Assembly (NCBI RefSeq): GCF_004010195.1
Contig: NC_057758.1
Location: 5,174,396-5,215,855 of the forward strand
Direction: 5' to 3'
From: Chiloscyllium plagiosum
Taxonomy: Eukaryota
Length of the DNA stretch: 41,460 bases
In this document: positions 1,909 through 33,787 of the stretch, in pieces
Numbering within the stretch: position 1 is the first letter of the stretch
How the letters are laid out: every line of letters begins with the position of its first letter
The notes under the pieces: generated by a model
What the model was told of the DNA's origin: nothing
Seen by the model: the letters and a program-made list of their open reading frames with translations, nothing else
Databases searched by the model: none
Program-made: the position numbers and the translations under genes

Positions 1909-1939
1909 ATATATTCCAGTTGTAGTGCGAAAGATTTTT

Positions 1940-2700: not shown

Positions 2701-2859
2701 CCTTTGTCTTCCCCGTACCTATGATATTCATACAGGAAACTAATTGACAGACGTAACAAATCTGAACGTTTGTGTAAGGCGGCGATTGTTGCCCATTCAT
2801 AGTTTCTCGTGATAGGGTGGTGATGAGCTTCAGTCTTAAACAATAAGTCTTATTACAGT

Positions 2860-9200: not shown

Positions 9201-9204
9201 GGTC

Positions 9205-9498
9205 AATGTTGTGCCAAGGGGTGCTTACGGGTTTTGTGGTAAGTATTGGAGACAGCATCGTTACGTTGGCATAATCCGTTGGGTTTTCGGATAGATCGTT
9301 GGTCTGTATTCTGTTCTCTTTTGCTTGTATTTTGTTCAGTATTCTTGTTAATAAATTTTGTTCATTTTGAACATAATTGGTTTGAACAGCTGCATCCCTC
9401 CTCGACTATCAGCATTACTTCTGCTTACAACAACCCGCAAAGATGGAGTCTGACTACTTCTTTAAGTGTTTTGAGGGTATCTGGCCTGGCACATAACA
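9205..9498 (+). mobile_element. 3' part of a Gypsy-type LTR
   Basis: AATAAA near 9350, ends in CATAACA; its reverse complement aligns by eye with the solo LTR at 30475-31233. Confidence 0.65.
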
Positions 9499-9708
9499 CC
9501 GTATTGGGCTTACCTTCCATTGAATCAAATGTTGTTACAACATGATCTTTCTCTTCGAATCTTTGAGCCTTACACATATCATGGAATATTCGTTTCTCCA
9601 TTTATTCATTCCATGGAATATTGTTTCCTGACCATGTACAGTGATTTTAGATTTATCAAAGCGATGATTACTTACTCCATATGACGCCTGTTTCTGCACA
9701 TGTCGGAT

Positions 9709-12025: not shown

Positions 12026-12391
12026 TTCTGGTATTGTGAATATGTTACGACAATAGTCAGGAGAGAAAGATCCTTAATTTGTGTATGAGCAACATTTCTG
12101 CAATACTATTTTCATCATACATGTGGCAGGGCTTGTTTCCCCACCCGCTCTGCAGGAGTTGAATCATTTCATCTAAGTCACGTTCAGGTGCTAGAAAATT
12201 CAAGCAAAGGAGGCTGCTTGAGAAAATGCCGTGGAAACGGATATCCTGATCAACCCAAACTTTATGAATGCACATATTTAACAGAAAAAAAGAAATAAGA
12301 TTATCAATGTGAATGATCCTTTGATATCTGGCTTGTCATGCATATAAACAGAAACCACCAGCCTGCATTTGGTAAAACAATATAACAAATG

Positions 12392-12443
12392 CTAATTATG
12401 GAAAAACTAATTATCTCCTTGGTGGATTGAATGGTGCATAAAT
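12392..12443 (+). promoter_or_regulatory. Candidate proximal promoter of GPCR gene copy 1
   Basis: CTAATTAT twice (12392-12399, 12407-12414) and TATA-like CATAAAT (12437-12443), about 75 nt upstream of the ATG. Motif match only. Confidence 0.35.
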
Positions 12444-12514
12444 GAGCTCGTCTGCTATTAGCTATGACATCCACCAGTCAGTGCCTTCCTGTTTATACGG
12501 AATTTACTGAGAAA

Positions 12515-12584
12515 ATGGAAAAACCTGCAATAATGCTGGTAAAAGAGTATTACTACCCGATTATTGCAACCATTGGCATACCTG
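12515..12584 (+). CDS. GPR139/GPR142-like class A GPCR, copy 1, exon 1 (MEKPAIMLVKEYYYPIIATIGIP + phase-1 G)
   Basis: AAAATGG Kozak-like start; donor G|GTATGT at 12584/12585; joins in frame to the acceptor at 13212, giving TM1 YYPIIATIGIPANVMTLIIL. Confidence 0.9.
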
Positions 12585-12619
12585 GTATGTTCTAATCATC
12601 TGTTTCTTGATAATTGCGA

Positions 12620-12765
12620 TGATGTGAAGGAGTTGGTGTTGTACTTGGATGGACAAACTCAGAGGTCAAACGACACCAGGTTATTTTCAGGTGATTTCAA
12701 ATGACTAAAGCTTGTGATTTCAAGTAAACCTGTTGGAGACTAAACTGGTGTCGTGTAACCTTTGT
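12620..12765. mobile_element. Degenerate palindromic Penelope-like fragment in the GPCR intron (copy 1)
   Basis: Inverted repeat ACGACACCAG...CTGGTGTCGT and AAACCTGTTGGA motif shared with 2123-2328. Confidence 0.6.
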
Positions 12766-13211
12766 ATTAGTAATTGATATTGACGATTTCATTTTTCCTA
12801 CTACAAAGCAGGAAAGTAGTGGTCTCCTCCGAATAAGCGTTCTCAGTCCGCTTGTCAGGTGAGCAAACATTCTACTCGATCATGTTCCATCTACCTTACT
12901 AAAATATCATTACTCCTGTTGCAATATTTTTGAAACGACTGCACAAAAGTTTTAGTAGAGTTCCGTATTATTCTGTGCAGTTCAGACAGAGTTGATAATG
13001 GTATTTCAGGTATCTATCGCATTTATAAAATGGTAATGGACATATAAGGTGTATCACTTCCCATGCAACGTCCCAATAATAAGCTTCATCTTTTAGTTTT
13101 TTTTTTCATACCGATGCTCTGTAAATGGAATAAATCTTTCACAGCATGTGCTTCTTAATTGATGTCAATCAGTTGTTAAAACGTGCCTAATCTGGTCTCT
13201 CCTCCTTGCAG

Positions 13212-13306
13212 CAAATGTGATGACTCTTATAATTCTGCCTCGAAGGAACTGCGGTGTTACTAAGTGCACGTCAGTCTACATGATAGCCATGGCCTCAGCT
13301 GATCTA
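13212..13306 (+). CDS. GPR139/GPR142-like GPCR, copy 1, start of exon 2 (truncated by gap)
   Basis: Acceptor TCTCTCCTCCTTGCAG|; NVMTLIILPRRNCGVTKCTSVYMIAMASADL, identical in protein to copy 2 (one synonymous change). Confidence 0.9.
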
Positions 13307-13806
13307 NNNNNNNNNNNNNNNNNNNNNNNNNNNNNNNNNNNNNNNNNNNNNNNNNNNNNNNNNNNNNNNNNNNNNNNNNNNNNNNNNNNNNNNNNNNNNN
13401 NNNNNNNNNNNNNNNNNNNNNNNNNNNNNNNNNNNNNNNNNNNNNNNNNNNNNNNNNNNNNNNNNNNNNNNNNNNNNNNNNNNNNNNNNNNNNNNNNNNN
13501 NNNNNNNNNNNNNNNNNNNNNNNNNNNNNNNNNNNNNNNNNNNNNNNNNNNNNNNNNNNNNNNNNNNNNNNNNNNNNNNNNNNNNNNNNNNNNNNNNNNN
13601 NNNNNNNNNNNNNNNNNNNNNNNNNNNNNNNNNNNNNNNNNNNNNNNNNNNNNNNNNNNNNNNNNNNNNNNNNNNNNNNNNNNNNNNNNNNNNNNNNNNN
13701 NNNNNNNNNNNNNNNNNNNNNNNNNNNNNNNNNNNNNNNNNNNNNNNNNNNNNNNNNNNNNNNNNNNNNNNNNNNNNNNNNNNNNNNNNNNNNNNNNNNN
13801 NNNNNN
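13307..13806. other. Assembly gap (500 N, probably a placeholder size)
   Basis: Exactly 500 N; the missing part of exon 2 alone is 810 nt in copy 2. Confidence 0.99.
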
Positions 13807-15344
13807 GTTCTTTGAAGCGGTACTTCATCAAATATCTTCCAGAAAACTAAGTATAATACAAGTAATGGTTCTCCTTTACGCCCAAAAAAAAACGTTACGA
13901 ACTAGCAATTAGAAGACACATGATTTTCCTTTTGTAAACCATGTCGACTACGACTGATTAATGTGAACTGGAGTATCCCACTGAAACATTTTAAACATGT
14001 TTCCTCTAAAAGAAGCTAATGTAACTGAGATGAGTTTTGTTTTTTATTTTTCTTGTCCTCTGTATTCTATTTGCGATATGGTCATCTAAAGTGACCTCCC
14101 TTGAATGTATTAAGTTTTAAAAATTCAATCTAAGTAATTCAATACTCACCACATCGTGAGAGCACTGTACAAAAGCCCATCAGAACTCGGGTTCTTGTCA
14201 GACTGAAGCTTCAATGGTGCTGTCTTTACCGTGGCTGCTACCCTGTTTGTTTCGTCCCTCTACTAAAGAGTACAGGCACTGGGATTGTGAGTTCAGGGAT
14301 TCATCTATCTTCGTAAATCAATACATTTTATTTCTTGACTGAATAGAATGCGAATGCATCAACAGGGTTCACATACGACCATTACCTTGCTGCTCAAACT
14401 GCTGATGGCACTTTTGGCCTTCTGAACTTCTGTCCACGATTCGTATGTATATTTCCGATCCTGGTGCAAACTGAGGATGACAATAGCATTACACATCGAA
14501 TAATCTATATGTCAGACTACAGTCAGTGCAGTCTTAGAACAGTACTGATCATTCAGCTCCCGATGTTGTGCTGGCATTTTATCTCACTCAAACATCAGAT
14601 TAACCAACACAACCTTTATTGTATTATTTTCCATGTGCCTATCGAAGAGTCACTTGAATGTACGTAATATGCATGACTCTACTACCACTCCAGGAAGTGT
14701 ATGTGACGCACCCATCAATCTCTGTGTAAAGAAACTCCATCTGACATCTCCCCTCAACCTTCCTCCAATTACCATTACACTATGCCCCACGTGGTAAACA
14801 TTTCCACGTTGGGAAAATGTCTCTGGCTACACATTCTATCTCTGCCTCTCAGCATCCTGTACTCCTCCTTCAAGTCACCTCTCATCCTACTTTACTCCAA
14901 TGAGAAAAACCCTCACTCCCTTTACCTTTCTTCATATAACATGTCCTCCTGTCCAGGCAGCATCCTAGTAAATCTCCTCTGCACCCTCTCTAAAGTTTAC
15001 ACATTTTTTCGATAACGACACAAACAGAACTGAAAGTGATATTCCAAGTGTCGTCTAATGAGCTCTCTGCAGACCAGCAGAATAACCTCGCACCTCTTAA
15101 ACTCAATTCGCCTGCTGATGATAGCCAACATACCTTATGCATTCTAAACTAATCTATCAACTTGGGTGACAACATTGAGGTCTCTATGGACACGGACTCT
15201 GAGATTCCTCTGTTCCTCCATACTGCCAAGGATCCTTTATTAAACCTTGTAATCTGCATTCAAATACGACCTTCCAAACTGAATGATTTTGCACTTTTCC
15301 TGGTTGAATTCTATCTGCCACTTCTCAGCCCGGATCGGCATCCC

Positions 15345-15656
15345 AGAATCATCGAATCCTTATTGTGCGGATCAGTGTTGGCCTAACAAGTCCAAACGAT
15401 TCTCTGAAGAGTAACCCAACCAGACCCATTTCTCTACATTTAACCCCTGACTAATGCACGCAAGTTACATGTCCCTGAACACTTGAGTATTTAGCATGGC
15501 GAATTCACATTAAATGCAAATCTTTGGATTGTGTGAGGAAATCGGAGCGCCCGGTGGAAACCCACACAGACATAGGGAGAACGTGCAAAGTCCAAGCAGA
15601 CAATCGCCGAGGCTGGAATCGATCTCAGTGCTAATCACTGAGCCACCGAGATGCCC
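15345..15656 (-). mobile_element. HE1-type SINE (diverged)
   Basis: Reverse complement of the HE1 head (CACTGAGCCACCG), core (GGAAACCCACACAGAC..GGGAGAACGTGCAAA) and tail. Confidence 0.88.
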
Positions 15657-16579
15657 TGGTGGTAGGGGACATCCTCTGAACGTCCCATTGCAACCGAGAA
15701 CAGCCCTCCACAATATACACAACTCCAACAACCTTCGGGTCATTAGCAATCCTGTTAATCCACCCTTCCAATTGCTCATCCAAATCATTTATAAAAATCA
15801 AAGAGAGTAGAGATCCCATAATCTATCCCTGAACACCATCGGTCACCAAGCTCCCGGCTGAATAGTTTATATGTATCACCACACGCTATCTTCTATTGGC
15901 TAAACAATTCATTACCCAGACTGCCAGATTTCCCCAGACCTCACGCCTCCTGATTTTCTGAAGGAGCCAACCCTGGGGAATATTTTCAAATGCATTGCTG
16001 AAATCCATGGAAACCACATCCATTGCTCTCTCTTCATCAACGTATTTTCTTACATCCACAACCAATTCAATAAGCTTTCAGAGTTTTGCGCTGCCACTCA
16101 CAAGTCCGTGTTAACTATGATTTCCTCAGTACTCATAAATCCTGTCTCTCAGAATCCTCTCAAATAATTTGCCCACAACTGACGTAAGACTTACTGGTGT
16201 TTAATTCCCAGGATTTTCCCTATCCCTTTATTGTACAAGGGAATAACATTTGTTACCCTTCAATCATCTGGAATTACTCCAATAGACAGTGCAGACGTAC
16301 AGATAATCTCAAATGGCACAACAACTTAATTCCTCACTTCCTGTCATAACTTCGACTATATCCTCTCTGGCCCAGGAAACTCAACTGTCGTGACGTTTTT
16401 CAAAATTTTCATCCCATCCTTTTCCTAACAGGAACCTGTGTCACGCTATCCTCCCAAAAGACACGATCCCTCTCAGGAATCAACACTGAAGCAAAGTATT
16501 TAGTCCGGACGTCCCCTACCTCCTCTGACTACGGCTCAATAACTTTCCACGATCCTTGATCGGCCATAACATCATTCCG

Positions 16580-16833
16580 AGCTGAACATGTGTTGCTGGA
16601 AAAGCGCAGTAGGCCAGGCATGAACATGTGTTGCTGGAAAAGCGCAGTAGGCCAGGCAGTATCCAAGGAGCAGGGGAATCGACGTTTCGGGCATGAGCCC
16701 TTCTTTCCTGAAGAAGTGCTCATGCCCGAAACGTCGATTTTCCTGCCCCTTGGATGCTGCCTGACCTGCTGCGCTTTTCCAGCAACACATTTTCAACTCT
16801 GATCTCCAGCATCTGCAGTCCTCACTTTCTCCT
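16580..16833. mobile_element. Palindromic Penelope-like fragment, copy 2, with an internal 38-bp tandem duplication
   Basis: TSD CATAACATCATTCCG at 16565-16579 and 16834-16848; 16583-16620 repeated at 16621-16658; hammerhead-like CTGAAGA...GAAACGTC at 16708-16735. Confidence 0.8.
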
Positions 16834-17768
16834 CATAACATCATTCCGGCCATCCTCTTTTCCTCATAGAAATGTGGAACACTTTGGCGCTTTCCTTCAT
16901 CCTACCTGTCAATTTTTTTCCATGCCCACCCATGCAGCTGTCCAGATTCCATTCGTCAGTTCCTTTCTGGCTAACTTTTAATCCGCTAAAGCTCTGTGGA
17001 ATCCTTGATTCCTCAACTTTAAGTAAGCTTCCATTTTCCTCTTCACGATATGTTTCACAAACCTGATCACCCACGCTTCTTTCAACCTACCATCCCGGCC
17101 TTGCCTCAGTGGGTCAAACATGTTCAGCACTATGAGCAACTGCTTCCTAAACAACCTCTCAACTTCTGTCGTGCATTTCCCTGAGAACATATGTCCACAA
17201 TGCAGACGGACAGTTTCTGTCTAATAGCATTGTCATCCTCGATACCACCTGCTTCTAACCCTCTTCAGGAGTACAGGAAATGTCATGGAATTAGAATCAA
17301 TATCTCTGAAATACTCTTCCATCGAGAGGTCTGACACCTGGTATGTTTCGTTGCCAATCACGAAACCCGAAATGGCCTCCACTCCAGTCAGTCTATCTGC
17401 ATATTGCATCTGTATCCGCTGTTATTGACCTCCATCGAGTCCCATGGTTTATCACTGAAGACGGGCAAGGATTCTGCACCTTTTAACTTTATTACATTTT
17501 TTATCTTTTTTGGGGTTAGATTCTGCTCTGAAGTACTTTTCTTCCGAAGATAGTGATGTTAATAGTGACGTTGCACACATTTCGCTGTACTCCTCTATCA
17601 CTGCGCTCGGGTACACGTGATAACACAACCAAAACATAATTATTTTTAATTCAGGCAAAAAAAAATCAGAAATAAGTCGGGAGAGAAATTCATGAAATAA
17701 TAAAATCAGTAAACAATGGAACATTCGGCATGTCCTCCAACCATTGGGCAATAAGCATGTTTTCATAT

Positions 17769-18078
17769 CAGCACGGTGGCTCAGTGGTAAGTACTGCTGA
17801 CTCACAGTGCCAGGGACCTGGGCAACTGTTTGTGTGGAATTTGCACATTCTTCCCGTGCCTGCGTGGGTTTCCTCGGGTGCTCCGGTTTCCTCCCACAGT
17901 CCAAAGATGTGCAGGTTAGGTGAATTGACCATTCTACATTGTACGTATTTTTAGGTGGATTAGTCAAGGGTAAATGTAGGAGAACGGGTCTGGGTGGGTT
18001 GCTCTTCGGAGGATCGAAGTGGACTTGTTGGGCCTAACGGCCTGTTTCCACTCTGTAGGGAATCTAATGAAATCTAAT
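17769..18078 (+). mobile_element. HE1-type SINE (paralog of 1601-1908)
   Basis: Same sequence and flanks as the copy 1 element. Confidence 0.92.
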
Positions 18079-18104
18079 ATATTCCAGTTGTAGTGCGAAA
18101 GATT

Positions 18105-18870
18105 TTTGGAGACGTACAGCACATAAATAGACCCTTCGGTCCACCTCATCCATGCCGTCCAGATATCATAAGCTAATCACACCCCATTTTGCCTGCAATT
18201 GGCCCATATCCAACTGAACCCTTCCTATTCATGTACCCATCCAGATGCCTTTTAAATGATGTAATTTTGCCTACATCTACCACTTCCTCTGATTTGGAGA
18301 TGCTGGTGTTGAATTGGGGTGCATACAGTTAAAAATCGCACAACACCTGATTATAGTCCGATAGGTTTAATTGGAAATATTAGATTTCGGAGCGCCACTC
18401 TTTCATCAGGTGGTGAAGGAGTGGAGCTCCGAAAGCTAGTGCTTCCAATTAAACCTGTTGGACTATAACATCGTGTTGTGTCATTTTTAACTTTGTACTT
18501 CCTCTTGCAACTCATTCTCGGCACAAACCACCCTTTGTATGAAAGAACTGTCCCTTCCAATTTTTTTCCTCTCTCACCGTAAACCATTGTCTTCTAATTC
18601 TGATCTCCCCCGCCATGGGTAAAAAAACCTTGTCTATTTATCCAATCCATACATTTCATAACTTTTCAAACTTCTAAGGGGTCACCCTTCAAGCACCAAT
18701 ACTACAGAAAAAGCAGCCGCTGCCTATTCAACCTATCTCTGCAGCTCAAATCCTCCAACGTTGTCAAAATCTTTGTAAATCTTTTCTGTACCCTTTCAGG
18801 TATTGCCATATCCTTCCGATAGGAAGGAGGCTAAAATTACACACAATATTCCAAATATATGGATCTTCCT
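18105..18870 (-). mobile_element. CR1/HER1 3' fragment (paralog of 1940-2700)
   Basis: Collinear with copy 1. Confidence 0.7.
18291..18496. mobile_element. Palindromic Penelope-like fragment, family 2, copy 2
   Basis: TSD ACTTCCTCT at 18282-18290 and 18497-18505; same inverted repeat as 2123-2328. Confidence 0.75.
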
Positions 18871-19034
18871 TTGTCTTCTCCGTACCAATGATATTCATAC
18901 AGGAAACTAATTGACAGACGTAACAAATCTGAACGTTTGTGTCTCTGGTAAGGCGGCGATTGTTGCCCATTCATAGTTTCTCGTGATAGGGTGGTGATGA
19001 GCTTCAGTCTTAAACTATAAGTGTTATTACAGTA

Positions 19035-21170
19035 AGACCTATTATGATAAGCTTCAATCTACAATTTGAAAGGGAGAGAGTACAAATGGTAGGGACAATA
19101 TTTCAGTTGAATAAAGGGAACTATGGAGCTATGAGGGAGGAGCTGGCCAAAGTTCAATGGTGCATTACCTCAACAGGGATGACAGTGGAGGAATAATGGC
19201 AGATATTTCTAGGTATAATGCAGGAGATGCAGAATCAGTTCATTCCAAAAAGGAAGTAAGATCCTATGAGGAGGCGGGGTGGCCGTGGCTGACGAGGGAT
19301 GTTAAGAAACATATCAAGTCAAAAGAGAAAAATAGAGCATAGCAAAGATAAGTGGGAAAACGGAGTACTGGGAAGCTTTTGAAGAACAACAGAGGATTAC
19401 CAAGAACGAAATACGGAGATAAAAAAATGAGGTACAAAGATAAATTGGTATGGCAGAAGAGTTGAATTGGTACTTTGGATCTGCGTTCACTGAGGAAGAC
19501 ACAAGCAATATCCCAGAGGTAACAGTGGCTGAAGGACCTGAACTTAAGGGAATTTATATTTGCCAGGAATTGGTGTTGGAGAGACTGTTAGGTCTGAAGG
19601 CTGATAAGTCCCCGGGGCCTGATGGTCTACATCCCAGGATACTGAAGGAGCGAGCTCTGGACATCGAGGATGCGTTGGTGATTATTTTCCAGAGTTCGAC
19701 AGAATCATTTCGTGCGGATTGGAGGGTGGCTAATGTTGTACCACTTTTTAAGAAAGGAGCGAGAGAGAAAGCAGGAAATTATAGACCAGTTAGTCTGACC
19801 TTCGTGGTGGGAAAGATGCTGGAGTCAATTATAAAGGATGGAATTACGACACATCTGGATAGCAGTAACAGGATAGGTCAGAGTCAGCATGGATTTATGA
19901 AGGGGAAATCATGCTTGACTAATCTTCTGGAATTTTTTGAACATGTAAATCTGAAGATGGACAACGGAGATCCAGCGGATGTAGGGTACCTGGACTTTCA
20001 GAAAGCCTTTGATAAAGTCCCACATAGGAGGTTAGTGAGCAAACTTAGGGCGAATGGTATTGGGGCAAAGTACGAACTTGGATTGATAATTGGTTGGCTG
20101 ACAGAAAACAAAGAGCAGTGATAAGCAGCTCCCTTTCGAATGTCAGGCGGCGACCAGTGGGGTACCGCAGGGATCAGTGCTGTGACCGCAGCTTTTTACA
20201 ATATATATTAATGATATAGAAGATGGAATTAAGAGTAACATTAGCAAAGTTGCTGATGATACAAAGCGGGGTGGCAGGGTGAAATGTGAGGAAGAATGTT
20301 AGGAGATTACAGGGTGACCTGGACAGGTTAGGACAGATGCATGGCAGATGCAGTATAATGTGGATAAAAGTATGGTTATCCACTTGGGTGGCAAGAACAG
20401 GAAGGCAGATTACTACCTAAATGGAGTCTAGTTAGGAAAAGGGGCAGTACAAAGAGATCTGGGTGTTCTTGTACACCAGTCAATGAAGGCAAGCATGCAG
20501 GTACAGCAGGTAGTGAAGAAAGATAATAACATGCTGGCCTTCATAACAAGAGGGATTGAGTATAGAAGCGAAGAGGTGCTTCCGCAGCTGTACAGGGCCC
20601 TGGTGAGACCGCACCTGGAATATTGTGTGCAGTTCTGGACTCCAAATTTGAGGAAAGACAATCTGGCTAATGAGGGAGTGCAGCGTATGTTCACGAGGTC
20701 AATTCCTGGAATGGCAGGACTATCTTATGTTGAAATATTGGAGCGACTGGGCTTGTATACCCTTGAGTTTAGAAGACTGAGAGGGGATCTGATTGAGACG
20801 TATAAGATTATTAAAGGATTGGAAACTCTGGAGGCAGGAAACATGTTTCCGTTGATGGGTGAGTACCGAACCAGAGGACACAGCTTAAAAATAAGGGGTA
20901 GCCCATTTAGGACAGAGATGAGGAGAAACTTCATCACTCAGAGAGTGGTGGGAGTATGGAATGCTCTGCCCCAAAAGGCAGTGGAGGTCCAGTCTCTGGA
21001 TTCGTTTAAGAAAGAGTTGGATAGATCTCTCAAGGATATTGGAATCGAGGGTTATGGAGATAAGGCAGGAACAGGGTACTGATTGAGGATGATCCGCCAT
21101 GATCATAATGAATGGTGGTGCAGGCTCGAAGGACAGAATGGCCTCCTCCTGCACTTATTGCCTATTGTCT
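19035..21170 (+). mobile_element. 5'-truncated CR1-clade LINE (RT pseudogene), copy 2
   Basis: ORFs 19450-20121 and 20483-21082 carry CR1 RT motifs (ADKSPGPDGLHPRILKE, LYRALVRPHLEYCVQFW); about 120 bp deleted near 19449 relative to copy 1. Confidence 0.95.
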
Positions 21171-24100
21171 TAAACTGTCCCGCTTCAGATTCTGTTAGCA
21201 GACACTTAGTTCAGTTCGTACGAAAGATCAATATAACCACCAAATAGACTGCATGGTTTATTCATCCAGCCACTGTTCACCTCATGAGTCTTTTGAATGT
21301 CGCGGGTGTGCGTTCTTCATTTCAAAGTGAATCAATTTAAACTGATATATCTCAATTGGGGTTACGAACGCAGAAATTTCTTTCACCCTCTTTGATGAAG
21401 TTACCTGCCAGTACCCATGCATTACGTCTAACTTTGTGATGTAACTGAATTGTCTGACTTTCTTGATATAGTCCTTTAATCTCGGAATTGGATGATACCG
21501 ATTTTGTAACGGCGTTGACCTTCTGATAATCCATGCAGAATAGTTGAGTCCCACCCCGTTTGGAAACCGAGACGATCAATGAACTCCACTGTGCCTGGTT
21601 TGGTTCGATGACTTCCTTGCCAAGCAAGACCTCCTCCTGAATCTCAACCTCTTTGGCTTTGAATGGATTAAACCAATAGGAATGTTGTTTTATTGATGCA
21701 GTATTCCCTGCGTCTATTTAGTTTGCAATAGTATTCGTCCACCTCATCTGATTCTTACATATGTCCTGATGCTACAGTTGCAAATCTGTCGACTGCGTTC
21801 TATCCTCCTAAGACTTTTAGGTCCCTAACATATCCCACTCCTCAGGGATAATTTATTTCTAATGTCCATTTAGAGGCACATCATCTGGATTTGATTCCTC
21901 ACTCTGTGGTGCAGTACCGAACACATGTTTTTGTCCCGTTCCTTTCTCCCTCGTATAAAGCTTTTTTTTTTTTCAGCATGGTCACATGACATACTCGATA
22001 CTCTTTTTTTTCTATCTGGTATCTTTACTAGATGACTCACCTGACTGAACTTCTTCCTACTTTGATATGGAGTACTAAATCTGGTTTTGACCGGATTTCC
22101 TATTGCATGTAACATTACTAACAAGTTATCCCTTCTGGAAAACGTCCGAGTGTCTATCACCTGCTTCATTCTACACTGTGACCTCTTTAGGTGCTGTTTA
22201 GCGAACTCACCTAAGCGAATTAATATCTCCCTTACCTCGAAAAAAATAACTGAATTGTGAGATCAACGACTTTGGTCCTGTCAATCTATCTTTAGTTCAT
22301 TTCAAAGGTCCTCTCACTTTATGACCGAATATTAACTCAAAGGGAGTGAACTGAATAGATTCGTTTCAAGCACCTCTCATGCCAAACAATGCGAATGGGA
22401 TACTTTTATCCCAATCATTCGGGTATGTCAACATCATCTTCGGTGTCTGATGGGACCTTTCTAAATCTCCCTGGTACTCAGGATGATCCACACTGGACTT
22501 AAAGTGATGTATACCTAAGCTATCCATAACCCCCTTAATTGACCTTGCAAGAAAACTTTACCAATGGTCCAACTGAATCTCACTGGGTAGCCAACACCCT
22601 GTGAAGAAAGCTACTAACTCCTCTACTACTCTTATTGAATTGTTACTCCATAATGGAATTGACTCCAGAAATCTGGTCGATTCCCATTTTTGGATGAGTA
22701 GTGGACCGACGCAATCAATTATAACCCACATGAAAAGTTCTTCAAATGTAGTAATTGGCAACAAAGGTGCTTTATTTTACGGCCTGTAGTTTCACAACTA
22801 TTTGGCATGTATGACACGTTCGGCAAAAATAAACCCTATCCTTATGCATTCCAGGAAAATAAAAACATTTTTGGATCAAAGCCTGAGTTTTCCGTACCTC
22901 TAAGTAACTTTCTACATGCAGAAAGAGCTTGCACCTCCTATCTGCATGTAGAAAGCAACACAACCTGGTGCGTTTCACATTCCAGGAAAATAAAAACATT
23001 TTTGGATCAAAGCCTGAGTTTTTCGTACTCTAAGTAACTTTCTACATGCAGAAAGAGCTTGCACCTCCTATCTGCATGTAGATAGCAACACAACCTGGTG
23101 CGATTCAGCACATTTTTCCTCGAAACAAACCTGCCGTAGTCTCCATTTCCGCTTTAGGATTCTATCTTTCAGATGATAATGCTCTGGAACATTCTCTGCC
23201 GTCTTTCCAGTGTGCACATTCACATGTACATCTTTTGTTGTATTGTCTTGCTTTTGCAAGTCTCTTCGTCTTTCAGGAATATACATCTCTGTTTGACCGT
23301 CTGCTTGATCAGGTTCTTCCTGCACATTTATGTCAAACAGGGTATCCACTAACTGACACTCAACTCCTTCGGCTTTCTCTTTACTTTTTGCATCGTGCTC
23401 TGACGTATAATAGTGTGATCCGCTTAACACACAAGTGTGGAAATACCAGGGTATTTACGTTTTTACTCATCAGTTTCATGGTCTTCCTTAGGCTTCTCCA
23501 CTATACGGGGTGTCACTCCGAGTTTGGACCCTGCCAAATCATTCCGAAGGAACAAACTGAATTCATAGAACTTGAAAACGTTCAATCACTCACTGTAAAT
23601 TTCCCAGTCTTGAGTTGGCAATCCAACCTGATCAAACATCGGGGAAAGCTACATTTCTTTCCATCTGTCCCACAAATTACCCTACTCTCGGGTAACAGAC
23701 CAGAAGAAGTGCATATTCGTTCATCTCTTCTGATACGTGACTAGTTTCATCCTGTATTGCTCAGAACTATATCCTGTTGTCCTTCTTCCCGTTTTTTTGA
23801 GTAATCGTTACACAGAGTCACATTCTTTAGAGAGATCAAGTACTAACTTCATACTTAGCTCCTACTGATCTGTGAACTGCATTCTCCTGCACCCGCTCAG
23901 CTTTTCTTGGGGTTTCGTTTATTACGTTCATTAATGCTACTGGCTTAGCTTCTTGTCCCACACCTTTTTCCACAGTGCCTTTCTTTAACGACAGCACTAT
24001 GACTGTACGTGACCAAATTTCTGGCAGTGAAAACGCCTGTTCCCAATACCGTTCCGAAACCACTGGCACTCCATTTTCTGTGTCTCACTCAATGTCGGTG

Positions 24101-25345
24101 AAAACACCTGAGGCCATTGACCTCTTTTCACTCTCTTGGAGTTTTTTTATCCTGTGCGCTCGACTCACTGCTTCGTTGTGTCGGATCTCGCCTTCTTCCA
24201 ACGTTTATCCCTCACAGAACGAAATTCTGGCCTGAAATGTGTCTTATGAACCAACATGTACTCATCAGCTACTTCTGTTTCCCTTCTCACTTCCTGAACG
24301 TTCTGTTACTCCACGTGAAATCTTACCATCTCTGCAAGTGAGTTTTTTTATGCTCCTCCAGTAGAATAATCTCTCTGGGTTCCTCAAGCGTCTTATCTAT
24401 TTTCAAACCACATATCCATTGATCCAAATGACTATGTTGAATTCTTTCGAACTCAACGTAATTCTGACCATGTTCCTTCTTTGTGTTTCGAAACTGCTGC
24501 CGCTATGCTTCCCAAACCAATTCATAAACATTTAAAATAGCCTGTTTAACATCTTAATAATCACTTCACACCTCGTATGACAGTGTGGCAAATACCTCAC
24601 TGGCTCGACCTACCAGCTTAAACTGAATGGGAAGCACCCGTAAATCCTCGGACCATTCCATCTGCCTTGCCCATTTTTCAAATGAAATAAAGAAGGTTTC
24701 GATAACCTTCTCAGCAAAATCTGGTAGGGTTTTGGCACATTTATATATCACTACCTCATTTATACATTATATATTTATCATTTACAAAACAAAGCCTCTT
24801 ATCTCAAAACCAAGCAGCTTTCAGTTCTGTTGTGTATTCCTGTCTTCTTTTCTTCTTCTTCGGGATTCTGCTTCACAGATTAATGCTCGATAAAAGTACC
24901 TTTAAGAGAGAAATTCTCGGGCAGTCTTTTTACATTTTGGTGGCTTGGGAGTTCTCCTCTCAACTGTTCAATTTTACCTGACCTCATACTCCCAAAACAC
25001 AGATTATGTCATTGAGTTTTAAGAATGTCAACGTACTAAACTCAAATTAGATTGTACTTTTTATTTATTGGGTATATCTTAAACTGATTGGCCTAATTCA
25101 AATCTCCTTCTTTGTCTTTAGAAAACCAGCTACCCATGCTAACCAACGAGCTGGACCACATGTTACATTGTATGTTTTTCAGAACATTTAGTGCTGTCAC
25201 TGCTAGTTTTAACTCTCGTAAAGGTATAATACACCCACATGTTCATAACACACTTTACGTTTTGGTCTTCCTTGTAATAATGTAATCCATTTTGCTCGTA
25301 ATTTATTTTGAAAATTTGTTTGCTCAAGTCTTTGGTCAATGTTGT
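21171..25345 (-). mobile_element. Decayed Gmr1-like Gypsy internal region, copy 2
   Basis: gag-like 24566-24751, integrase 22558-22999, RT 21282-21627 (YITKLDVMHGYWQV, SAFVTP, YQFKLIHFEMKNA). Confidence 0.88.
22847..23107 (+). repeat. Tandem duplication of ~131 bp (22847-22977, 22978-23107), copy 2 only
   Basis: Both units start CATTCCAGGAAAATAAAAAC; single in copy 1 (~6534-6664). Confidence 0.95.
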
Positions 25346-25631
25346 GCCAAGGGGTGCTTACGGGTTTTGTGGTAAGTATTGGAGACAGCATCGTTACGTT
25401 GGCATAATCCGTTGGGTTTTCGGATAGATTTTTGGTCTGTATTCTGTTCTCTTTTGCTTGTGTTTTGTTCAGTATTCTTGTTAATAAATTTTGTTCATTT
25501 TGAACATAATTGGTTTGAACAGCTGCATCCCTCCTCGACTATCAGCGTTACGTCTGCTTAAAACAACTCGCAAAGATGGAGTCTGACTACTTTTTTAAGT
25601 GTTTTGAGGGTATCTGGCCTGGCACATAACA
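25345..25631 (+). mobile_element. 3' part of a Gypsy-type LTR, copy 2
   Basis: Paralog of 9205-9498; ends CATAACA. Confidence 0.65.
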
Positions 25632-26299
25632 CCGTATTGGGCTTACCTTCCATTGAATCAAATGTTGTCACAACATGATCTTTCTCTTCGAATCTTTGAG
25701 CCTTACACATATCATTGAATATTCGTTTCTCCATTTATTCATTCCATGGAATATTGTTTCCTGCATGATTTTAGATTTATCAAACCGATGATTACTTACT
25801 CCATATGACGCCTGTTTCTGCACATGTCGGATCGCCCAGGACTACATTTTTATGCATGACATACAGGCAGCGATTGAATTCGGGTAGACATCAACATCCT
25901 CTGAGAACACTATGATCAACTCTCAACAATCCACAAGTTGGTTCTGCTTTCCATGTAAAAAAAAGCTTGCTGAAATAGTCATATGTTGAATGCTACCTGA
26001 ATGATTCAAATTCTTGCCGTTGATCAAATTCTGTCCTCATGAAGGAATTTTGCAAATGTATTTGCAGATTATTGTGCTCGTTTGTCTTCATGTAGGTTTG
26101 TTGGTTCCTTTGTTTGTTTGCAATGCATGTGAAATAGGATTGCAAAAATTGCACTTACTCATTTGAAGCTATTAACTGAAACCACCATTTTATGAATTCT
26201 TTGAAGATCATTAATTGCATGATCAGACACGACAAAAGAAAATCGATAAACATTTTTTTTTGCCAATCGATAATTCGAGGTAAGCACCAGAAGAATATT

Positions 26300-27620
26300 A
26301 TACTACTAAGCTATTTGGCAGTGTATGTTATGAAGATGATACTCAGAGGCTGCAGAGTGACTTGTACACACTACCTGAGTGAGAAACTAATTGGCAAATG
26401 TACCCATAATGTAGATAAATGTGAGGTTATCCAATTTGGCCCCAAATGTAGGAATGCAGATTATTGTAAGAATGGTATCAGTTCAAGGAAAGGTGAGGTG
26501 CAACGAGACCTGGGCATCATGGTGGAACGGTCGCTGATGGATAGTATGGAGGTACAGCAGGCAGTCAGGAAACCGAATGACATGCTGGCCTTCGTCGCAA
26601 GAATGGTTAGTATCGGAGTAAGGATGTCTTGCTGCACTTATATAGGGCCTTGGCGAGGCCACACTTTGAGAACTCCGTGTAGCTTTGAACTCTTTGGCTG
26701 AGAAATAGCGTTCTTGCTATTGACGGCGTCCAGCAATGGTTCACCAGACTGATTCGGAGATGGCAAGATTGACATTTGAGGAAAGTCGAAGTGTGTGAAT
26801 ATAGAAAGCAGCACAGCAGTTCAGGCAGCATCCAATGAGCAGGACTGTCGATGATTCATAAGCCCTTCACCAGGCATAAGGAGGAGGTAGTGGGTGACAC
26901 ATAAATGGAGGCCTAGCGTGGGGCTGCGTGGACGTATAGTTGGATGGCAATTGATAGATACAGGTGGGAAGTGTTTGGAAACGTTGCTGGGACGAACGGT
27001 TTGGATGGGTGAGAAGGAGGCTGGCAGCTCGGTCAAGTTAAAAGACCTTAATGACTTGGAAGGCTCGATCTGGGATGAAGTGGGGCAAGTGGAAATGAGG
27101 AAACTGGTGAAATTGGCATTAATTCCGTGTGTTGCAGGACCCAGGACGGAAGTTGAATTGTTCTTCTTCCAGTTAGCGGGTGGCTTTGACTTGTCGGTGA
27201 ATGAAGGTGATGAAAATTTTGTTGGATTGAGCTTGTATTCACTAGAACTTAGAAGGGTGGCGAGCCATTGTCACGGGAACATATGACATGCTCATGGGGC
27301 TACACACGCTAGATGACAGAAGAATGTTGCCGATGTTGGTAAAGTCCAGAACTAGGGGTCAGAGCCTAATAATAAGGAGTATGCTAGTCAGATTTGAGAT
27401 GAAGAAGAATTTGCTCATTCACAGAGTTATGAACCCTTGGAATTCTCTCCCCCAGTATTTTTTTCCGTCCAGTTCATCAGATATATTCAATGTGGTATGG
27501 GCAGGAAGTTGGAATGAGATACTGAGACTTCATGATCAGCCATGATCCTGTTGAATGGTAGTGCATGCTCGAAAGGCCAAATGCTCTACTTCTCAATCCA
27601 TTGTTTGTGATTCTATGTTT
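26300..27620 (+). mobile_element. Old CR1 3' fragment with nested Penelope-like fragment (~26800-27210), copy 2
   Basis: Paralog of 10705-12025. Confidence 0.82.
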
Positions 27621-27984
27621 CTGGTATTGTGAATATATTACTGCAATAGTCAGGAGAGAAATATCCTTAATTTTTGTATGAGCAACATTTCTGCAATACT
27701 ATTTTCATCATACATGTGGCAGGGCTTGTTTCCCCACCCGCTCTGCAGGAGTTGAATCATTTCATCTAAGTCACGTTCAGGTGCTAGAAAATTCAAGCAA
27801 TGGAGGCTGCTTGAGAAAATGCCGTCGAAACGGCTATCCTGATCAACCCAAACTTTATGAATGCACACATTTCACAGAAAAAAAGAAATAAGATTATCAA
27901 TGTGAATGATCCTTTGATATCTGGCTTGTCATGCATATAAATAGAAACCATCAGCCTGCATTTGGTAAAACAATATAACAAATG

Positions 27985-28036
27985 CTAATTATGGAAAAAC
28001 TAATTATCTCCTTGGTGGAATGAATGGTGCATAAAT
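27985..28036 (+). promoter_or_regulatory. Candidate proximal promoter of GPCR gene copy 2
   Basis: CTAATTAT at 27985-27992 and 28000-28007, CATAAAT at 28030-28036; same motifs as copy 1. Confidence 0.35.
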
Positions 28037-28126
28037 GAGCTCGTCTGCTATTAGCTATGACATCCACCAGTCAGTGCCTTCCTGTTTGTACGGAATTTAC
28101 TGAGAAAATGGAAAAAACCTGCAATA

Positions 28127-28178
28127 ATGCTGGTAAAAGAGATTTACTACCCGATTATTGCAACCATTGGCATACCTG
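28127..28178 (+). CDS. GPR139/GPR142-like GPCR, copy 2, exon 1 (in frame from second ATG: MLVKEIYYPIIATIGIP); the upstream ATG at 28108 is out of frame by +1 A
   Basis: Donor G|GTATGT at 28178/28179; A6 run at 28112-28117 versus A5 in copy 1. Confidence 0.85.
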
Positions 28179-28213
28179 GTATGTTCTAACCGTCTGTTTC
28201 TTGATAATTGCGA

Positions 28214-28375
28214 TGATGTGAAGGAGTTGGTGTTGTACTTGGATGGATAAACTCAGAGGTCAAACGACACCAGGTTATTTTCAGGTGACTTCAAATGACT
28301 AAAGAACGGTGTTCCAAAAGCTTGTGATTTCAAGTAAACCTGTTGGAGACTAAACTGGTGTCGTGTAACCTATGT
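28214..28375. mobile_element. Degenerate palindromic Penelope-like fragment in the GPCR intron (copy 2)
   Basis: Paralog of 12620-12765 with 16 extra bp (AACGGTGTTCCAAAAG). Confidence 0.6.
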
Positions 28376-28820
28376 ATTAGTAATTCATATTGACGATTTC
28401 ATTATTCCTACTACAAAGCAGGAAAGTAGAGGTCTCCTCCGAATAAGCGTTCTAAATCCGCTTGTCAGGTGAGCAAACATTCTACTCGATCATGTTCCAT
28501 CTACCTTACTAAAATATCATTACTCCTGTTGCAATATTTTTGAAATGACTGCACAAAAGTTTTAGTAGAGTTCCGTATTATTCTGTGCAGTTTAGACAGA
28601 GTTGATAATGGTATTTCAGGTATCTGTCGCATTTATAAAATGGTAATGGACATATAAGGTGTATCACTTCCCATGCAACGTCCCAATACTAACCTCCATC
28701 TTTTAGTTTTTTTTTCATACCGATGCTCTGTAAATGGAATAAATCTTTCACAACAGGTGCTTCTTAATTGATGTCAATCAGTTGTTAAAACGTGAATAAT
28801 CTGGTCTCTCCTCCTTGCAG

Positions 28821-29725
28821 CAAATGTGATGACTCTTATAATTCTGCCTCGAAGGAACTGCGGTGTTACTAAGTGCACGTCGGTCTACATGATAGCCATG
28901 GCCTCAGCTGATCTAATGGTTATTTTCATCGATGTAACCTTATATCGCATTTTCAGTTTTCATTTTCCATTTTCATTCTTGTCGCGTACTCCAGTGTGCA
29001 GGACTATTTTATACACGATGATTTCCAGCGTGGACTTATCTGTTTGGTTCACAGTTTCCTTCACATTTGACCGTTTTGTAGCTATCTGTGACCAGAAATT
29101 TAAACGAAAGTTCTGCACCCCAAGAAATGCTGGCGTAGTCATAACAACGTTCTCTTTTGTCAGTTTTCTCAAGAATATTCCAACTTTGTTTGCATATGAA
29201 ACCCAACATCTAATTGACGGAGTGCAGTGGGGTTGTCAGTCAAGTGAAGATTTTTTTTTCTCACCACCAGGTATAGCCTTCGTCTGGTTTCACACCACCT
29301 GGGTCGTTTGGTTTCCTTTTTCTCTGATTCTCTTGTTTAATTCTATGACCATAAGATCTATTCTCCTGGCCAATAGAATCCGCCAAGCCCACAAAGGTTA
29401 TCGAGATAAAAATTGCAGTGATCCAGAGATTGAAAACCGCATGAAATCCATCATTTTATTGCTCTCTGTGTCAGGTTGTTTCATCTTGTTTTGGTTGACA
29501 GCTTCTGTGAGCTTTGTGTCAACTCGAATATCAAACTCCACCTATTACAGAGGCGACTACAGTGATCCAGGATACGTCGCCCATGAAGCAGGCACTTCGC
29601 TGAAGTTTTTGATTTGTTTACAGAACCCGTTCATTTATATAATAACGCAGAGGAAATTCAGGAAAGCGCTGAAAAATGCGATAAGCTCTCTCTGGCTATT
29701 AATGCTGAGACTAGTTTGCAAATAG
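28821..29725 (+). CDS. GPR139/GPR142-like class A GPCR, copy 2, exon 2 (end of TM1 through TM7 and C-tail, open frame)
   Basis: Acceptor CTCCTTGCAG|; TM2 MAxAD, Cys before TM3 (PVC), SVWFTVSFTFDRFVAIC (DRY-like), ECL2 Cys (WGC), TM5 Pro (WFPF), TM6 FILFW, TM7 NPFIY, helix 8 KFRKAL; stop TAG; AATAAA at 29754-29759. Spliced product is 318 aa from ATG 28127. Confidence 0.95.
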
Positions 29726-30474
29726 GACTAAAACTAAAATAATATTGCTGACAAATAAATTTCAATTTGAATGCGTTTGTTCGAACGTAGCATGTATTGC
29801 TTTGTTGTGTTACGGAACAAAATGCATCAACTATTTTGCTCACACTTATTTTATTTTGTAACATATGCTGTTATCTTTATTAGTTGAATTCCACTTCTCC
29901 AACCTGCTTTCACTTTCATCATGACAGCAAGGGCCACAGCAGCAGAAGTTTGCCATTCAGTCCTTCAGTTGTGCTTTGCCATTCAATGGGGTGACCTGAT
30001 ATTTCGTATCTCCACAGTTTAGACTTGTCTCCATAACGTCAGCTTTCCGAGAAACTAGATAGTTGAAGTAGAGGAGAAAATATGACAACAACCGTGCATC
30101 AAACATTTGGATAAGGGAGCAAATCAATTACATTCTGGATACAGAACTCCACTAAATCAATTTCATTTTGTTATACATTTCTCATTGCAAGTCTTGCAAT
30201 TATCAATGTTGGCACATACAGACATAAGGCCACATGAAATAGGAGCAGGAATAGGCCATCCAACCCTTCGAACCTGCTCCGCCACTTAATAAGATCATGA
30301 TCTGTACTGGAGAGAGACAGTATCTAGTTGCTATGCTAAACTACCATGTTAAAGGTGTGTTTATGCGATATTGTCTATCTTAAAACAGTTGATGATTCAT
30401 CTTAACAATGCATTTTTTAGTTTTTGAATTGCCTAAAAATTATGCTTTCCATAGTTTTTATTGTACTTTAACTC

Positions 30475-31233
30475 TGTCACGAGAACAAATGATGCTTTGC
30501 TAACAGCTTCCTGTTGGACAAATCGAATCGTATTTTGAACACAACATCTTCCATTTGCCTTTCAATGAAGACAAAGGGTTATAATCGAAGCAATTGTTGC
30601 CGACCAGGACAGACACCTCAATATATATCAACAATGTAGCCCAAACCCCAACTTTTACAGGAGTTGTAAACAAAAATGAGGCGAATATTCCACACAGTGG
30701 AAGAGCCACTCAGTTTTAAGCAGAACAAAATTTATTTACAGAGTACTGAATGAATCTAAGCAAAAAGATGCAGAATTTAGAATAACAGCAATGTTTGAAG
30801 CCTACCAACAAAATATCTCCCGCAATTTAACGGAATGCTGTTCTGATATCCTGCCAAATTCAATATACAAACGCCTTGGCAAAAAATTGAAATAAAAGAC
30901 GGATTCTTACAGGAGAGAGAGTTTGCAGAGAAGATCAAACAAGATCATTAGCTGAGATAAGGACACTCCTTATTGCCAGTAGCTTGTTGGGTCCCCCAAC
31001 GAAATCTAACAGAAAATTGAAAATGCTTGAACCGCGAGATTTGATTTTTCAGTGTCGAAGCAGGTTATTTTTATGTAAGCCTTTTCTCTTATGTTTAACA
31101 TGCGCAGTACCTATTAGCCATAATCAAAGTTCCCTAAACACAGACAAATTGGAACCACCACCTTTTACAAGTCATTTTAAAAATAAAAGAAACAAGGAGA
31201 ATATAATATTATTAAAGGAGATGCATCGTCACA
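30475..31233 (-). mobile_element. Solo Gypsy-type LTR
   Basis: TG...CA ends with 7/8 terminal inverted repeat (TGTCACGA / TCGTCACA); minus-strand AATAAA near 30735; similar to the reverse complement of 9205-9498. No clean TSD seen. Confidence 0.7.
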
Positions 31234-31439
31234 CTATCTCCTTACAGAACCTGGGGCCGTTGTGGGTAGATGGTTTGGAACTGGCAGGTATCTCTTCTTC
31301 TCCATACGGACGTTTGGGTTTCTTGCCCAGGATGAAATTCTCGTAGTGCAAGTTGAGTTTAGAATTATTGGACTCAAGCACATTTAGTGGTGACATTTGG
31401 TGCGCTCCTTCATGATTTTGCATTCATTTAGTTTAGGCC

Positions 31440-31815
31440 AAAAGAGGCACGAGTATGAATGAGACTATTCGACCAATCGAATCTGCTTCACCATTAAACA
31501 ATGATTGGGAAGTTTCCCGAACACATTCTCCCATTTTCTTTCCGTAACATTTGATGCCCTTAACAATCAAGAAAATGCAACACTCTACCTTAAATATACT
31601 CAGCAACTTGATCTCCACGGTATTCTGCATCCATGAATTCCACAGATTCACCACCCTCTGACTGAATCAGTTCCCCTTATCTCCGGTCTGAAGAGACTTT
31701 CCTTTACTCCAAGGCTGTCCCCTCGGGCACTTTTGGCTCCTGAAAATGGAAACATCTCCCACTCTGTACTCTTCTCAAGGCTCTCAGTATTCTGTTAGCT
31801 TCAATTAGATCCACC
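31440..31815 (-). mobile_element. CR1 LINE 3' end fragment
   Basis: Minus-strand VVNLWNS...IFKVE motif and CR1 3' UTR. Confidence 0.8.
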
Positions 31816-32295
31816 TGAAGACCTGAACTGCTGGGGAGGGGTCTCTCAGTTCCGTGAACAGTCGATAAGTACACCTGTAAACGACACTTTCAATTTCAGA
31901 ATTAAAAGCTTATTCAATAATACAGCGCAGAGTTGGCAGGCTCTGATTCGCCCAGAAGTTAGAAAACCCCTGAGCAATGAAAAGTATCCAACATCTTACA
32001 GAATTTGTATGGGGTTCATGTACATTGTTCATAGGTAGGCATTGTAGCATGATCGCATACTAACAACCTATCAATACAAATCTAGGAAGACGGACTGGGC
32101 AGAAATCAACAGAAAAGGAAGGACATCATAATTGAGAGATTCAGAAGACCGGAAGGATTTCAGCAACAGAGATTAGCTTCAATTAGATCCACCTGAAGAC
32201 CTGAACTGCTGGGGAGCTCTCAGTTCCGTGAACAGTCGATAAGTACACCTGTAAACGACTCTTTCAATTTCAGAATTAAACGCTTATTCAATAAT
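31795..32295 (+). repeat. Direct repeat, 378-bp period, running into the gap
   Basis: TTAGCTTCAATTAGATCCACCTGAAGACC... at 31795 and 32173, about 125 bp aligned with a few differences. Confidence 0.9.
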
Positions 32296-32795
32296 NNNNN
32301 NNNNNNNNNNNNNNNNNNNNNNNNNNNNNNNNNNNNNNNNNNNNNNNNNNNNNNNNNNNNNNNNNNNNNNNNNNNNNNNNNNNNNNNNNNNNNNNNNNNN
32401 NNNNNNNNNNNNNNNNNNNNNNNNNNNNNNNNNNNNNNNNNNNNNNNNNNNNNNNNNNNNNNNNNNNNNNNNNNNNNNNNNNNNNNNNNNNNNNNNNNNN
32501 NNNNNNNNNNNNNNNNNNNNNNNNNNNNNNNNNNNNNNNNNNNNNNNNNNNNNNNNNNNNNNNNNNNNNNNNNNNNNNNNNNNNNNNNNNNNNNNNNNNN
32601 NNNNNNNNNNNNNNNNNNNNNNNNNNNNNNNNNNNNNNNNNNNNNNNNNNNNNNNNNNNNNNNNNNNNNNNNNNNNNNNNNNNNNNNNNNNNNNNNNNNN
32701 NNNNNNNNNNNNNNNNNNNNNNNNNNNNNNNNNNNNNNNNNNNNNNNNNNNNNNNNNNNNNNNNNNNNNNNNNNNNNNNNNNNNNNNNNNNNNNN
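32296..32795. other. Assembly gap (500 N)
   Basis: Exactly 500 N. Confidence 0.99.
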
Positions 32796-33480
32796 TAATG
32801 TCACAGGTCAACGATAAAGTGTATAACCGAGATGAGGAAGGACAAACACACCAAGACAGAGATGAACCTTCAGAACTCCCTGCCACAGAAACATAATGAG
32901 AACAAAATAGTGAATAATTCATGAAGCTGTTGGGCAATGTTATTAGCCCGAAGAGATCAAACGGCAATGGTATAAACTGAAAACGTGAGACTAAGTTGGA
33001 TGCTTAGTCCTGTTGACACGGAATGGTGGATCAGGCTGGGATGGCCATTTGATTGACTGCTTCTACTCTTTTCTCTTTTTCGAGATTCAACATTGAAAAC
33101 AAAAAAAAATGATGGAGGTACAGCCTGTTTCAAACTCATGCCAGGATGGAGTGGAGTCAGTAAACAGACAATTGATGTTGCATGCTGCTCTGAAGCAGAC
33201 AGCTTTCATTTTCCAAAACCTAACTGGTCAAGACAGACACGACTCGAGGTTTACAGACTGATGAACGAAAATTGATACATGGAATTGGCACCACCAAATT
33301 CAACAATTACCTCATGTACTTAAAAGTAAACCGATATACATGCCCAATTTCCTGACACACAGGGTTAACAAAAGAAAGGGGACAATTACTTAGGAGATAT
33401 GAGAGAGAACAATTGGCAAGGGCATTCATGAATTGAAAGGTAGTTTTAACTCCGAGTCAATACTTCGATTGAAAACTTAC

Positions 33481-33787
33481 CGGAAATTCCGACAAAACCA
33501 ATGATAGGATAGTAATAACCTTCAATGATGTAAAGTGTATATTGTATTCGGGATCGTAATGACAAACGATCATAATAAGTGGAAAGTACAAAAAGATACC
33601 AAGATAGACTCCTGAAATGCATTGTCACATTCCAATGCATTGTTTCCAGATTCTTATCCATTGCAGGTATATTCCAATCCTTTGCTTTCAGATTCTGATC
33701 CATTCCCATAATGATCCAATCGATTTTTCTTCGCTTCCGATCACATATTGTGAAGTTCCATTCTCTTGCTATAAGATTTGATCTCAT
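33481..33787 (-). CDS. Third GPR139/GPR142-like GPCR, exon 1 with a long repeat-containing N-terminus; exon 2 not visible
   Basis: 102 open codons ending IEGYYYPIIGFVGIS + G|GTAAGT, the same YYPII..G motif and phase-1 donor as the other two genes. The start could be a later Met. Confidence 0.82.

Follow-up and report, generated by a model that had tools for sequence, protein, structure and literature searches.

The genome of the shark Chiloscyllium plagiosum (3.56 Gb) includes a 41,460-bp stretch, here called the window (C49:5174396-5215855), that carries pieces of three receptor genes, A, B, and C. The receptor family to which these genes belong is real and very large, and it is apparently undescribed. 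We consider the family a chemosensory receptor repertoire, likely olfactory, at a probability of roughly 0.55; this interpretation, drawn from genome sequence, is backed by the variability of the ligand pocket and by promoter motifs. By genomic tests the family behaves like a chemoreceptor repertoire except for pocket acceleration in young copies, and the promoter result is partly conclusive. An earlier note on the window had described three receptor gene pieces sharing a YYPII-x3-G motif and a phase-1 intron in transmembrane helix 1 (TM1), and had proposed a multiplying family. All three pieces were found where it had placed them, each with the motif followed by a phase-1 GT donor, and the expansion exceeds the scale it had supposed.

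Using gene B exon 2 as a query against the genome returned at least 131 matches with 45-100% identity. The combined census used seven exon-2 queries from different lineages (891 family rows after removal of 7 non-family rows) and identified at least 646 distinct loci, 557 of which are stop-free over nearly the whole of exon 2, the exon on which this was judged. Without the rows found only by the weakest search, the numbers are at least 586 loci and 517 stop-free. Scaffolds C1-C51 hold 445 of the 646 listed loci, and among these listed loci the densest scaffolds are C44 (96), C46 (54), C37 (47), C8 (37), and C49 (32). Six 100-kb samples from family-bearing scaffolds contained four intact and nine broken copies (three samples were empty). 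None of the four intact copies is among the 646, so the family probably exceeds 1,000 loci in total. A Chao1 estimate gives 1,366 loci, a rough figure whose assumptions these searches violate. Intact and broken copies stand side by side in clusters, and the birth-and-death pattern that the earlier note had proposed is thus seen directly.

The reading frames of the paralogues are under purifying selection. The ratio of nonsynonymous to synonymous substitution rates (dN/dS) has a median of 0.31 and is below 1 in all 37 disjoint paralogue pairs. Of 108 open reading frames (ORFs), a set that includes GPR139, GPR142, and two single relatives, L061 and L062, 106 retain the splice acceptor of a phase-1 intron located before Asn1.50; the intron is therefore a shared ancestral trait and is not diagnostic of the family. 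Exon 1, encoding 20-28 residues and ending in a phase-1 GT donor, was located within 7 kb for 23 of 40 genes. Subfamilies are common to sharks and rays in the tree, named relatives come from 15 genera of sharks and rays, and a protein library at 50% identity holds 91 clusters at E <1e-30. One database model (P0142) fuses a coiled-coil segment to a family receptor, which is probably a gene-model fusion of neighbors. The coiled-coil segment looks TRIM-like.

The family members are two-exon genes for class A (rhodopsin-like) G protein-coupled receptors (GPCRs). Gene B exon 2 matches Pfam 7tm_1 (E 1.8e-18), and its structure model is confidently a class A GPCR with seven helices (predicted local distance difference test score, pLDDT, 84.8). 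Class A landmarks are highly conserved across the family: N1.50 (98%), D2.50 (100%), a DRY-type motif in the form DRF (D 100%, R 97%, F 90%), N7.49 (94%), and Y7.53 (94%). The cytoplasmic face, the cysteines joining TM3 to extracellular loop 2 (ECL2), and W6.48 are also conserved. In a fold search, peptide receptors scored alike and GPR139 ranked 26th, which is uninformative on kinship. At an E-value of 0.01, gene B exon 2 had no match to odorant receptor (OR)-type Pfam families and matched only 7tm_1; together with the coding intron, this rules out membership of the OR family.

Database names place these genes close to GPR139, and phylogeny does not. Nearly all listed homologues (119 of 120) are named, all are from sharks or rays, and most are called "probable G-protein coupled receptor 139"; the same type of label is carried by 17 of 18 family representatives looked up. 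Yet one true GPR139 was found in the genome at C21 (85% identity to a human record and 95% to Mustelus) and one true GPR142 at C24. Median identity of 103 family members to GPR139/GPR142 is 23%, compared to 46% within the family, so the name "GPR139-like" used in the earlier note is misleading. Two trees, one of 71 rows under LG+G4 and the other of 42 rows under a C20 mixture, had the SSTR1 of the same genome as root and support from the Shimodaira-Hasegawa-like approximate likelihood ratio test (SH-aLRT) only. In both, the family is joined first by a salamander gene (SH-aLRT 99); branching outward are the L061 lineage (with coelacanth and silverside), L062, and an amphioxus "GPR139", while GPR139 and GPR142 stand apart. 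Approximately unbiased (AU) tests reject a grouping of the family with GPR139 (p 1e-109) and of family, salamander gene, GPR139, and GPR142 together (p 0.003). The family is its own clade, separate from GPR139/GPR142, and the suspicion that its members are not true GPR139 orthologues was correct. Of the refuting outcomes named in the earlier note, neither a low copy number nor nesting within GPR139 or GPR142 was observed.

The family and GPR139/GPR142 are both class A GPCRs with a phase-1 intron just before Asn1.50 and W6.48, and GPR139/GPR142 are the nearest relatives by sequence among solved structures. They differ in that the TM3-ECL2 cysteine pair is kept in the family (100% and 97%), whereas GPR139/GPR142 have no TM3 cysteine. 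They also differ in that the pocket residues of GPR139/GPR142 are not conserved in the family and that one orthologue each of GPR139 and GPR142 was found elsewhere in the genome.

The position of the salamander gene (P0231, P0270, and P0273 from Pleurodeles, Ambystoma, and Lissotriton) as sister of the whole shark family suggests that the founder gene was already present in the ancestor of jawed vertebrates, and that most bony vertebrates either lost it or never expanded it. An amphioxus protein used as a query returned no vertebrate proteins. Named rows included no chimaera members; no chimaera genome was searched. L061 (C26:36600769) and L062 (C98156:21305) were each found once, and both share the intron position of the family and carry arginine at 6.51. 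The identity of L061 to a coelacanth protein is 64%, and a silverside and a crocodile have related genes. The grouping of the family with coelacanth XP_005988539 and kin has SH-aLRT support of 87-96. GPR210, described by Rinne et al. (2019; PMC6504862) in coelacanth, gar, and fishes, is an orphan receptor with three subtypes placed beside GPR139/GPR142. Our trees likewise have three lineages in the GPR210 position (L061 with XP_005988539 and the silverside gene; L062; and the family with the salamander gene), and these lineages may be the GPR210 group. The difference is that the accessible part of that report has no shark data and describes no expansion.

RefSeq and UniRef already contain models of the same genes. 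Their labels are automatic and sometimes read "capa", "FMRFamide", "allatostatin", or "vasopressin V2 receptor-like", and the models do not present these genes as one family. In the literature covered, which leaves out most subscription journals, no published description of the family was found, and the accessible supplements of PMC12361510, PMC8455134 (12 of 24 files), PMC13188829, and PMC10115646 do not mention it. One shark study removed families of more than 100 copies from its expansion analysis; such filtering may be one reason why a family of this kind was overlooked.

Predicted pocket positions differ between subfamilies. Across family members, entropy is 2.24 at 31 generic pocket positions; it is 1.78 at the 61 remaining outer-helix positions (p 0.004), and the inner face has 1.29. 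By residue class, the values are 1.46 for the pocket and 0.89 for the other outer-helix positions (p 1e-4). In 121 GPR139/GPR142 orthologues the relationship is reversed (pocket 0.61 vs 1.14, p 0.001). The ligand residues that GPR139 needs include F109, H187, W241, and N271 (PMC5430874), and we mapped GPR139 residues to the family by one constant offset, which fits all five residues named in the accessible part of that paper. The corresponding family columns are Y44%/F13% for F109, H35%/D28%/Y15% for H187, W93% for W241, and F25%/Y22%/N17% for N271. Thus only W241 of the four is conserved across the family, and gene B retains two of the four. Arginine 6.51 is common to GPR139, GPR142, L061, and L062 and is mixed in the family. 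For 37 disjoint pairs, dN/dS is 0.28 in the pocket, 0.29 in the other outer helix, 0.49 in extracellular loops, and 0.25 on the inner face. Because the pocket varies between subfamilies without acceleration in close paralogues, differences in ligand seem to have been settled long ago, between subfamilies, and not to come from fast change in young copies.

Promoters of mouse odorant receptor genes carry homeodomain and O/E sites, and consensus strings for both are tabulated (PMC3247239, Table 1). De novo motif search in 29 non-redundant upstream regions of the family gave TC(t/c)CTGGAG as the top motif, at a median of -94 from the ATG (interquartile range -105 to -77) and with an information of 10.55 compared to 8.7-9.2 in eight shuffles. 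By hand count, the published O/E consensus is matched at 8 or more of 10 letters by 15 of the 29 sites, all between -76 and -114, against an expectation of about three. The top 6-mer, CTAATT, fits the homeodomain consensus of the same source; it occurs in 17 of 29 proximal and 4 of 29 distal windows and in 5% of random windows. It lies 8 bases before the TC(t/c)CTGGAG motif in 6 of the 13 genes that have both. A TATA-like box was read by eye at about -57 to -86 in nine of ten regions. The distant long-N-terminus subfamily has a homologous composite. Among its held-out genes, 7 of 17 have the 6-mer in the proximal window and none of the 17 in the distal one, 4 of 17 have the composite, compared to 0.7% of random windows, and promoter tests across the two subfamily sets gave p values of 0.007 and 0.0009. 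The relative L061 lacks the motif (score 1.6). GPR139 exon 1, intended as a promoter control, was not found within 20 kb, and a first k-mer test on ten upstream regions was no better than shuffles.

Genes A and B have the full homeodomain-type, O/E-like, and TATA-like arrangement, the TATA-like boxes being read from sequence and factor binding being inferred. The predicted promoter of gene A (12392..12443, + strand) has homeodomain-type 6-mers at 12392 and 12407, an O/E-like site at 12415-12424, and a TATA-like box at 12437-12443. That of gene B (27985..28036, + strand) has the 6-mers at 27985 and 28000, the O/E-like site at 28008-28017, and the TATA-like box at 28030-28036.

Olfactory and other chemoreceptor families (OR, TAAR, V1R, V2R, T1R, T2R) offer the closest parallel. 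The likeness lies in hundreds of compact genes, tandem clusters, birth and death, a short N-terminus in most subfamilies of the shark family, a variable pocket, and homeodomain-type, O/E-like, and TATA-like motifs upstream. The shark family differs in its lineage, its intron in TM1, and its kinship with peptide receptors. At about even odds, the sense of smell of sharks and rays may rely on their own chemoreceptor family, which would be unrelated to OR, TAAR, V1R, and V2R and would have around a thousand genes descended from one orphan peptide-type GPCR that acquired an odorant-receptor-like homeodomain-O/E promoter. LIM-homeodomain and EBF factors would turn on each gene in a sparse set of olfactory sensory neurons, the G protein would be the same for all members, and the water-soluble molecules detected would differ from subfamily to subfamily. 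Amino acids or small peptides would be the likeliest ligands given the kinship with GPR139/GPR142 and with invertebrate peptide receptors, such as those for MIP, FMRFamide, and proctolin (PMC8514136, PMC12208981).

Several observations weigh against an olfactory chemoreceptor repertoire. The pocket positions were taken from a generic class A list. Close paralogues show no acceleration in the pocket, and only extracellular loops are raised. Unplaced contigs account for 201 of the 646 loci and may include haplotype duplicates. For the promoters, two-fold cross-validation recovered a similar motif in about half of eight folds, and 36 of 116 tests placed the top held-out site inside the expected window, where 20% would be expected to do so. 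Only 12 of 29 and 4 of 17 genes have the composite, gene C has no 6-mer, and the two subfamily sets differ in the register of the O/E match. The promoters also share ancestry, so motif counts are not independent. EBF and homeodomain factors act in B cells and in other neurons. Activity of these factors outside the nose is also noted in PMC3247239, and catshark olfactory neurons are described as all microvillous and mainly V2R-expressing (PMC10116579).

The first rival explanation is a sensory repertoire outside the nose, in taste buds, in somatosensory neurons, as for the MRGPRs of rodents, or in the skin, gills, or gut, where solitary chemosensory cells would carry it. We regard this as possible and clearly less probable than an olfactory role. 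GPR142 senses amino acids in the gut and pancreas, and the size, pocket, and selection evidence fits a repertoire of this kind equally well. Expression of O/E in non-olfactory tissues is reported to differ between O/E family members, but homeodomain, O/E, and TATA elements near the start are the combination described for odorant receptor promoters (PMC3247239), which favors the nose.

A repertoire for immune or internal ligand recognition, for example leukocyte receptors for microbial peptides similar to formyl-peptide receptors, is unlikely, and somewhat more so than a non-olfactory sensory role. EBF1 is a B-cell factor, the fastest-evolving parts of these receptors are the extracellular loops (dN/dS 0.49), and one subfamily has a variable-number, often glycosylated 14-residue N-terminal repeat. 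Against this, the homeodomain-type 6-mer is the strongest promoter signal, and no immune genes were seen by eye among 80 listed long ORFs in 900 kb of cluster DNA, for which no Pfam scan was made.

That most loci are passenger copies of segmental duplication in repeat-rich DNA, with few functional genes, is largely refuted and very improbable. Genes A and B do lie in one repeat-filled duplication, gene B has an out-of-frame first ATG, and broken copies are frequent, making up 9 of the 13 loci of the 100-kb samples. Passenger copies would not fit the dN/dS below 1 in every pair, the 557 stop-free members among at least 646 loci, the splice acceptor retained in 106 of 108 ORFs, the subfamilies common to sharks and rays, or promoter motifs that persist across subfamilies about 46% identical in protein. 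Duplicates of GPR139/GPR142 that still sense tryptophan and phenylalanine are the least credible rival, their orthology being refuted: GPR139 is the best PDB sequence match of gene B (E 7e-7) and intron position and database names agree, but the true orthologues are at C21 and C24, AU tests reject the grouping, and W241 is the only conserved residue of the four required in GPR139.

Within the window, a tandem segmental duplication of 16.1 kb contains both gene A and gene B. Self-BLAST aligned unit 1 (1..13306), which holds gene A, with unit 2 (16133..28915), which holds the promoter, exon 1, intron, and exon 2 start of gene B, at 93-97% identity. Several indels separate the units, and retroelement pieces fill both. 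The earlier note was right that A and B are recent paralogues, but they are parts of one duplication and not separate insertions. Around the gene, the two copies have 32 differences in 1,205 aligned bases. Local tandem duplications tell the units apart (9709-10770, 532 bp; 22847-23107, 131 bp).

Gene A (+ strand) consists of exon 1 (12515..12584; 23 codons and one further base, then a phase-1 GT donor), a GT..AG intron of 627 bp, and the first 95 bp of exon 2 (13212..13306), which is interrupted by an N gap (13307-13806). Gene B (+ strand) has exon 1 at 28108..28178, an intron of 642 bp, and exon 2 at 28821..29725, which is open from TM1 to TM7 and through helix 8 to the stop. The predicted spliced protein of 318 residues holds; its proposed start does not, as one extra A throws ATG 28108 out of frame and the count begins at the in-frame ATG 28127. 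The extra A is absent from contigs of sequencing runs X2 and X4. Near it, 8 of 14 differences in these contigs are copy-A letters and 6 match neither copy, so the contigs likely come from sister copies, and the extra A may be a real frameshift or an assembly error.

An unplaced contig (C54120:1-1697, L002) is 97% identical to gene B exon 2 and its 3' flank; over the shared 71 bp it has two differences from A and one from B. It may be an allele, a third copy, or the part that gene A lacks. Two single-cell runs, their tissue unstated, were mapped on 27300-30150; X5 gave 164 partial reads and X6 none (2% and 6% of the runs, respectively). Nearly all X5 reads fall on a repeat tail in the gene B intron (28309-28347). 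This tail draws many reads from transcripts elsewhere, some of them poly(A)-ended, and is a trap for expression counts.

Gene C (- strand, 33481..33787) is an exon 1 of the long-N-terminus subfamily with a 14-residue repeat and a phase-1 GT donor. Its intron enters an N gap (32296-32795), and exon 2 was not found in the window or in 181 kb around it. The earlier note had extended the exon to 33787; the Met at that position is absent from all four of the closest relatives read (L032, L033, L034, and L036), so 33709 or 33703 is the likelier start. At C49:4438813 there is an open exon 2 of the same subfamily; a gap lies upstream of it, and 20 kb around it hold no exon 1 that matches. Aligned to a complete paralogue, its intron piece starts about where that of gene C stops, and we infer that the two exons are probably one gene split by scaffolding. 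In this subfamily the N-terminus has one to about six copies of the repeat, often with a glycosylation sequon; the repeat begins with Met, and an aromatic-rich segment and then TM1 follow (33481-33787; L031-L040, L278-L297). As a query, gene C exon 1 gave at least 150 matches in the genome, and the exon-2 search for this subfamily had no locus in common with the other six.

Other traces of the family lie in and near the window. An intact exon 2 of another subfamily (C49:5109440-5110357) is 65 kb upstream, and a decayed family pseudogene (C49:5131265-5132164) is 43 kb upstream. A weak fragment on the minus strand of the window (39307-39396, 18 bits) resembles the TM6 region of the family and is possibly a remnant.

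No vertebrate group is reported to have a smaller olfactory repertoire than the cartilaginous fishes, with a mean of 43.8 genes and a range of 20-62 (PMC10869828), and a "relative paucity" of GPCRs is also described for them (PMC8455134). This small repertoire sits badly with the large size of their olfactory organs. With more than 500 stop-free genes, the family is over ten times the mean of 43.8, which challenges the claim of paucity whatever the tissue. If the family is olfactory, it would add to the known chemoreceptor families of vertebrates, and promoter control of the odorant-receptor type would have been recruited independently. If so, the apparent poverty of shark olfactory receptors would stem from searching known families only.

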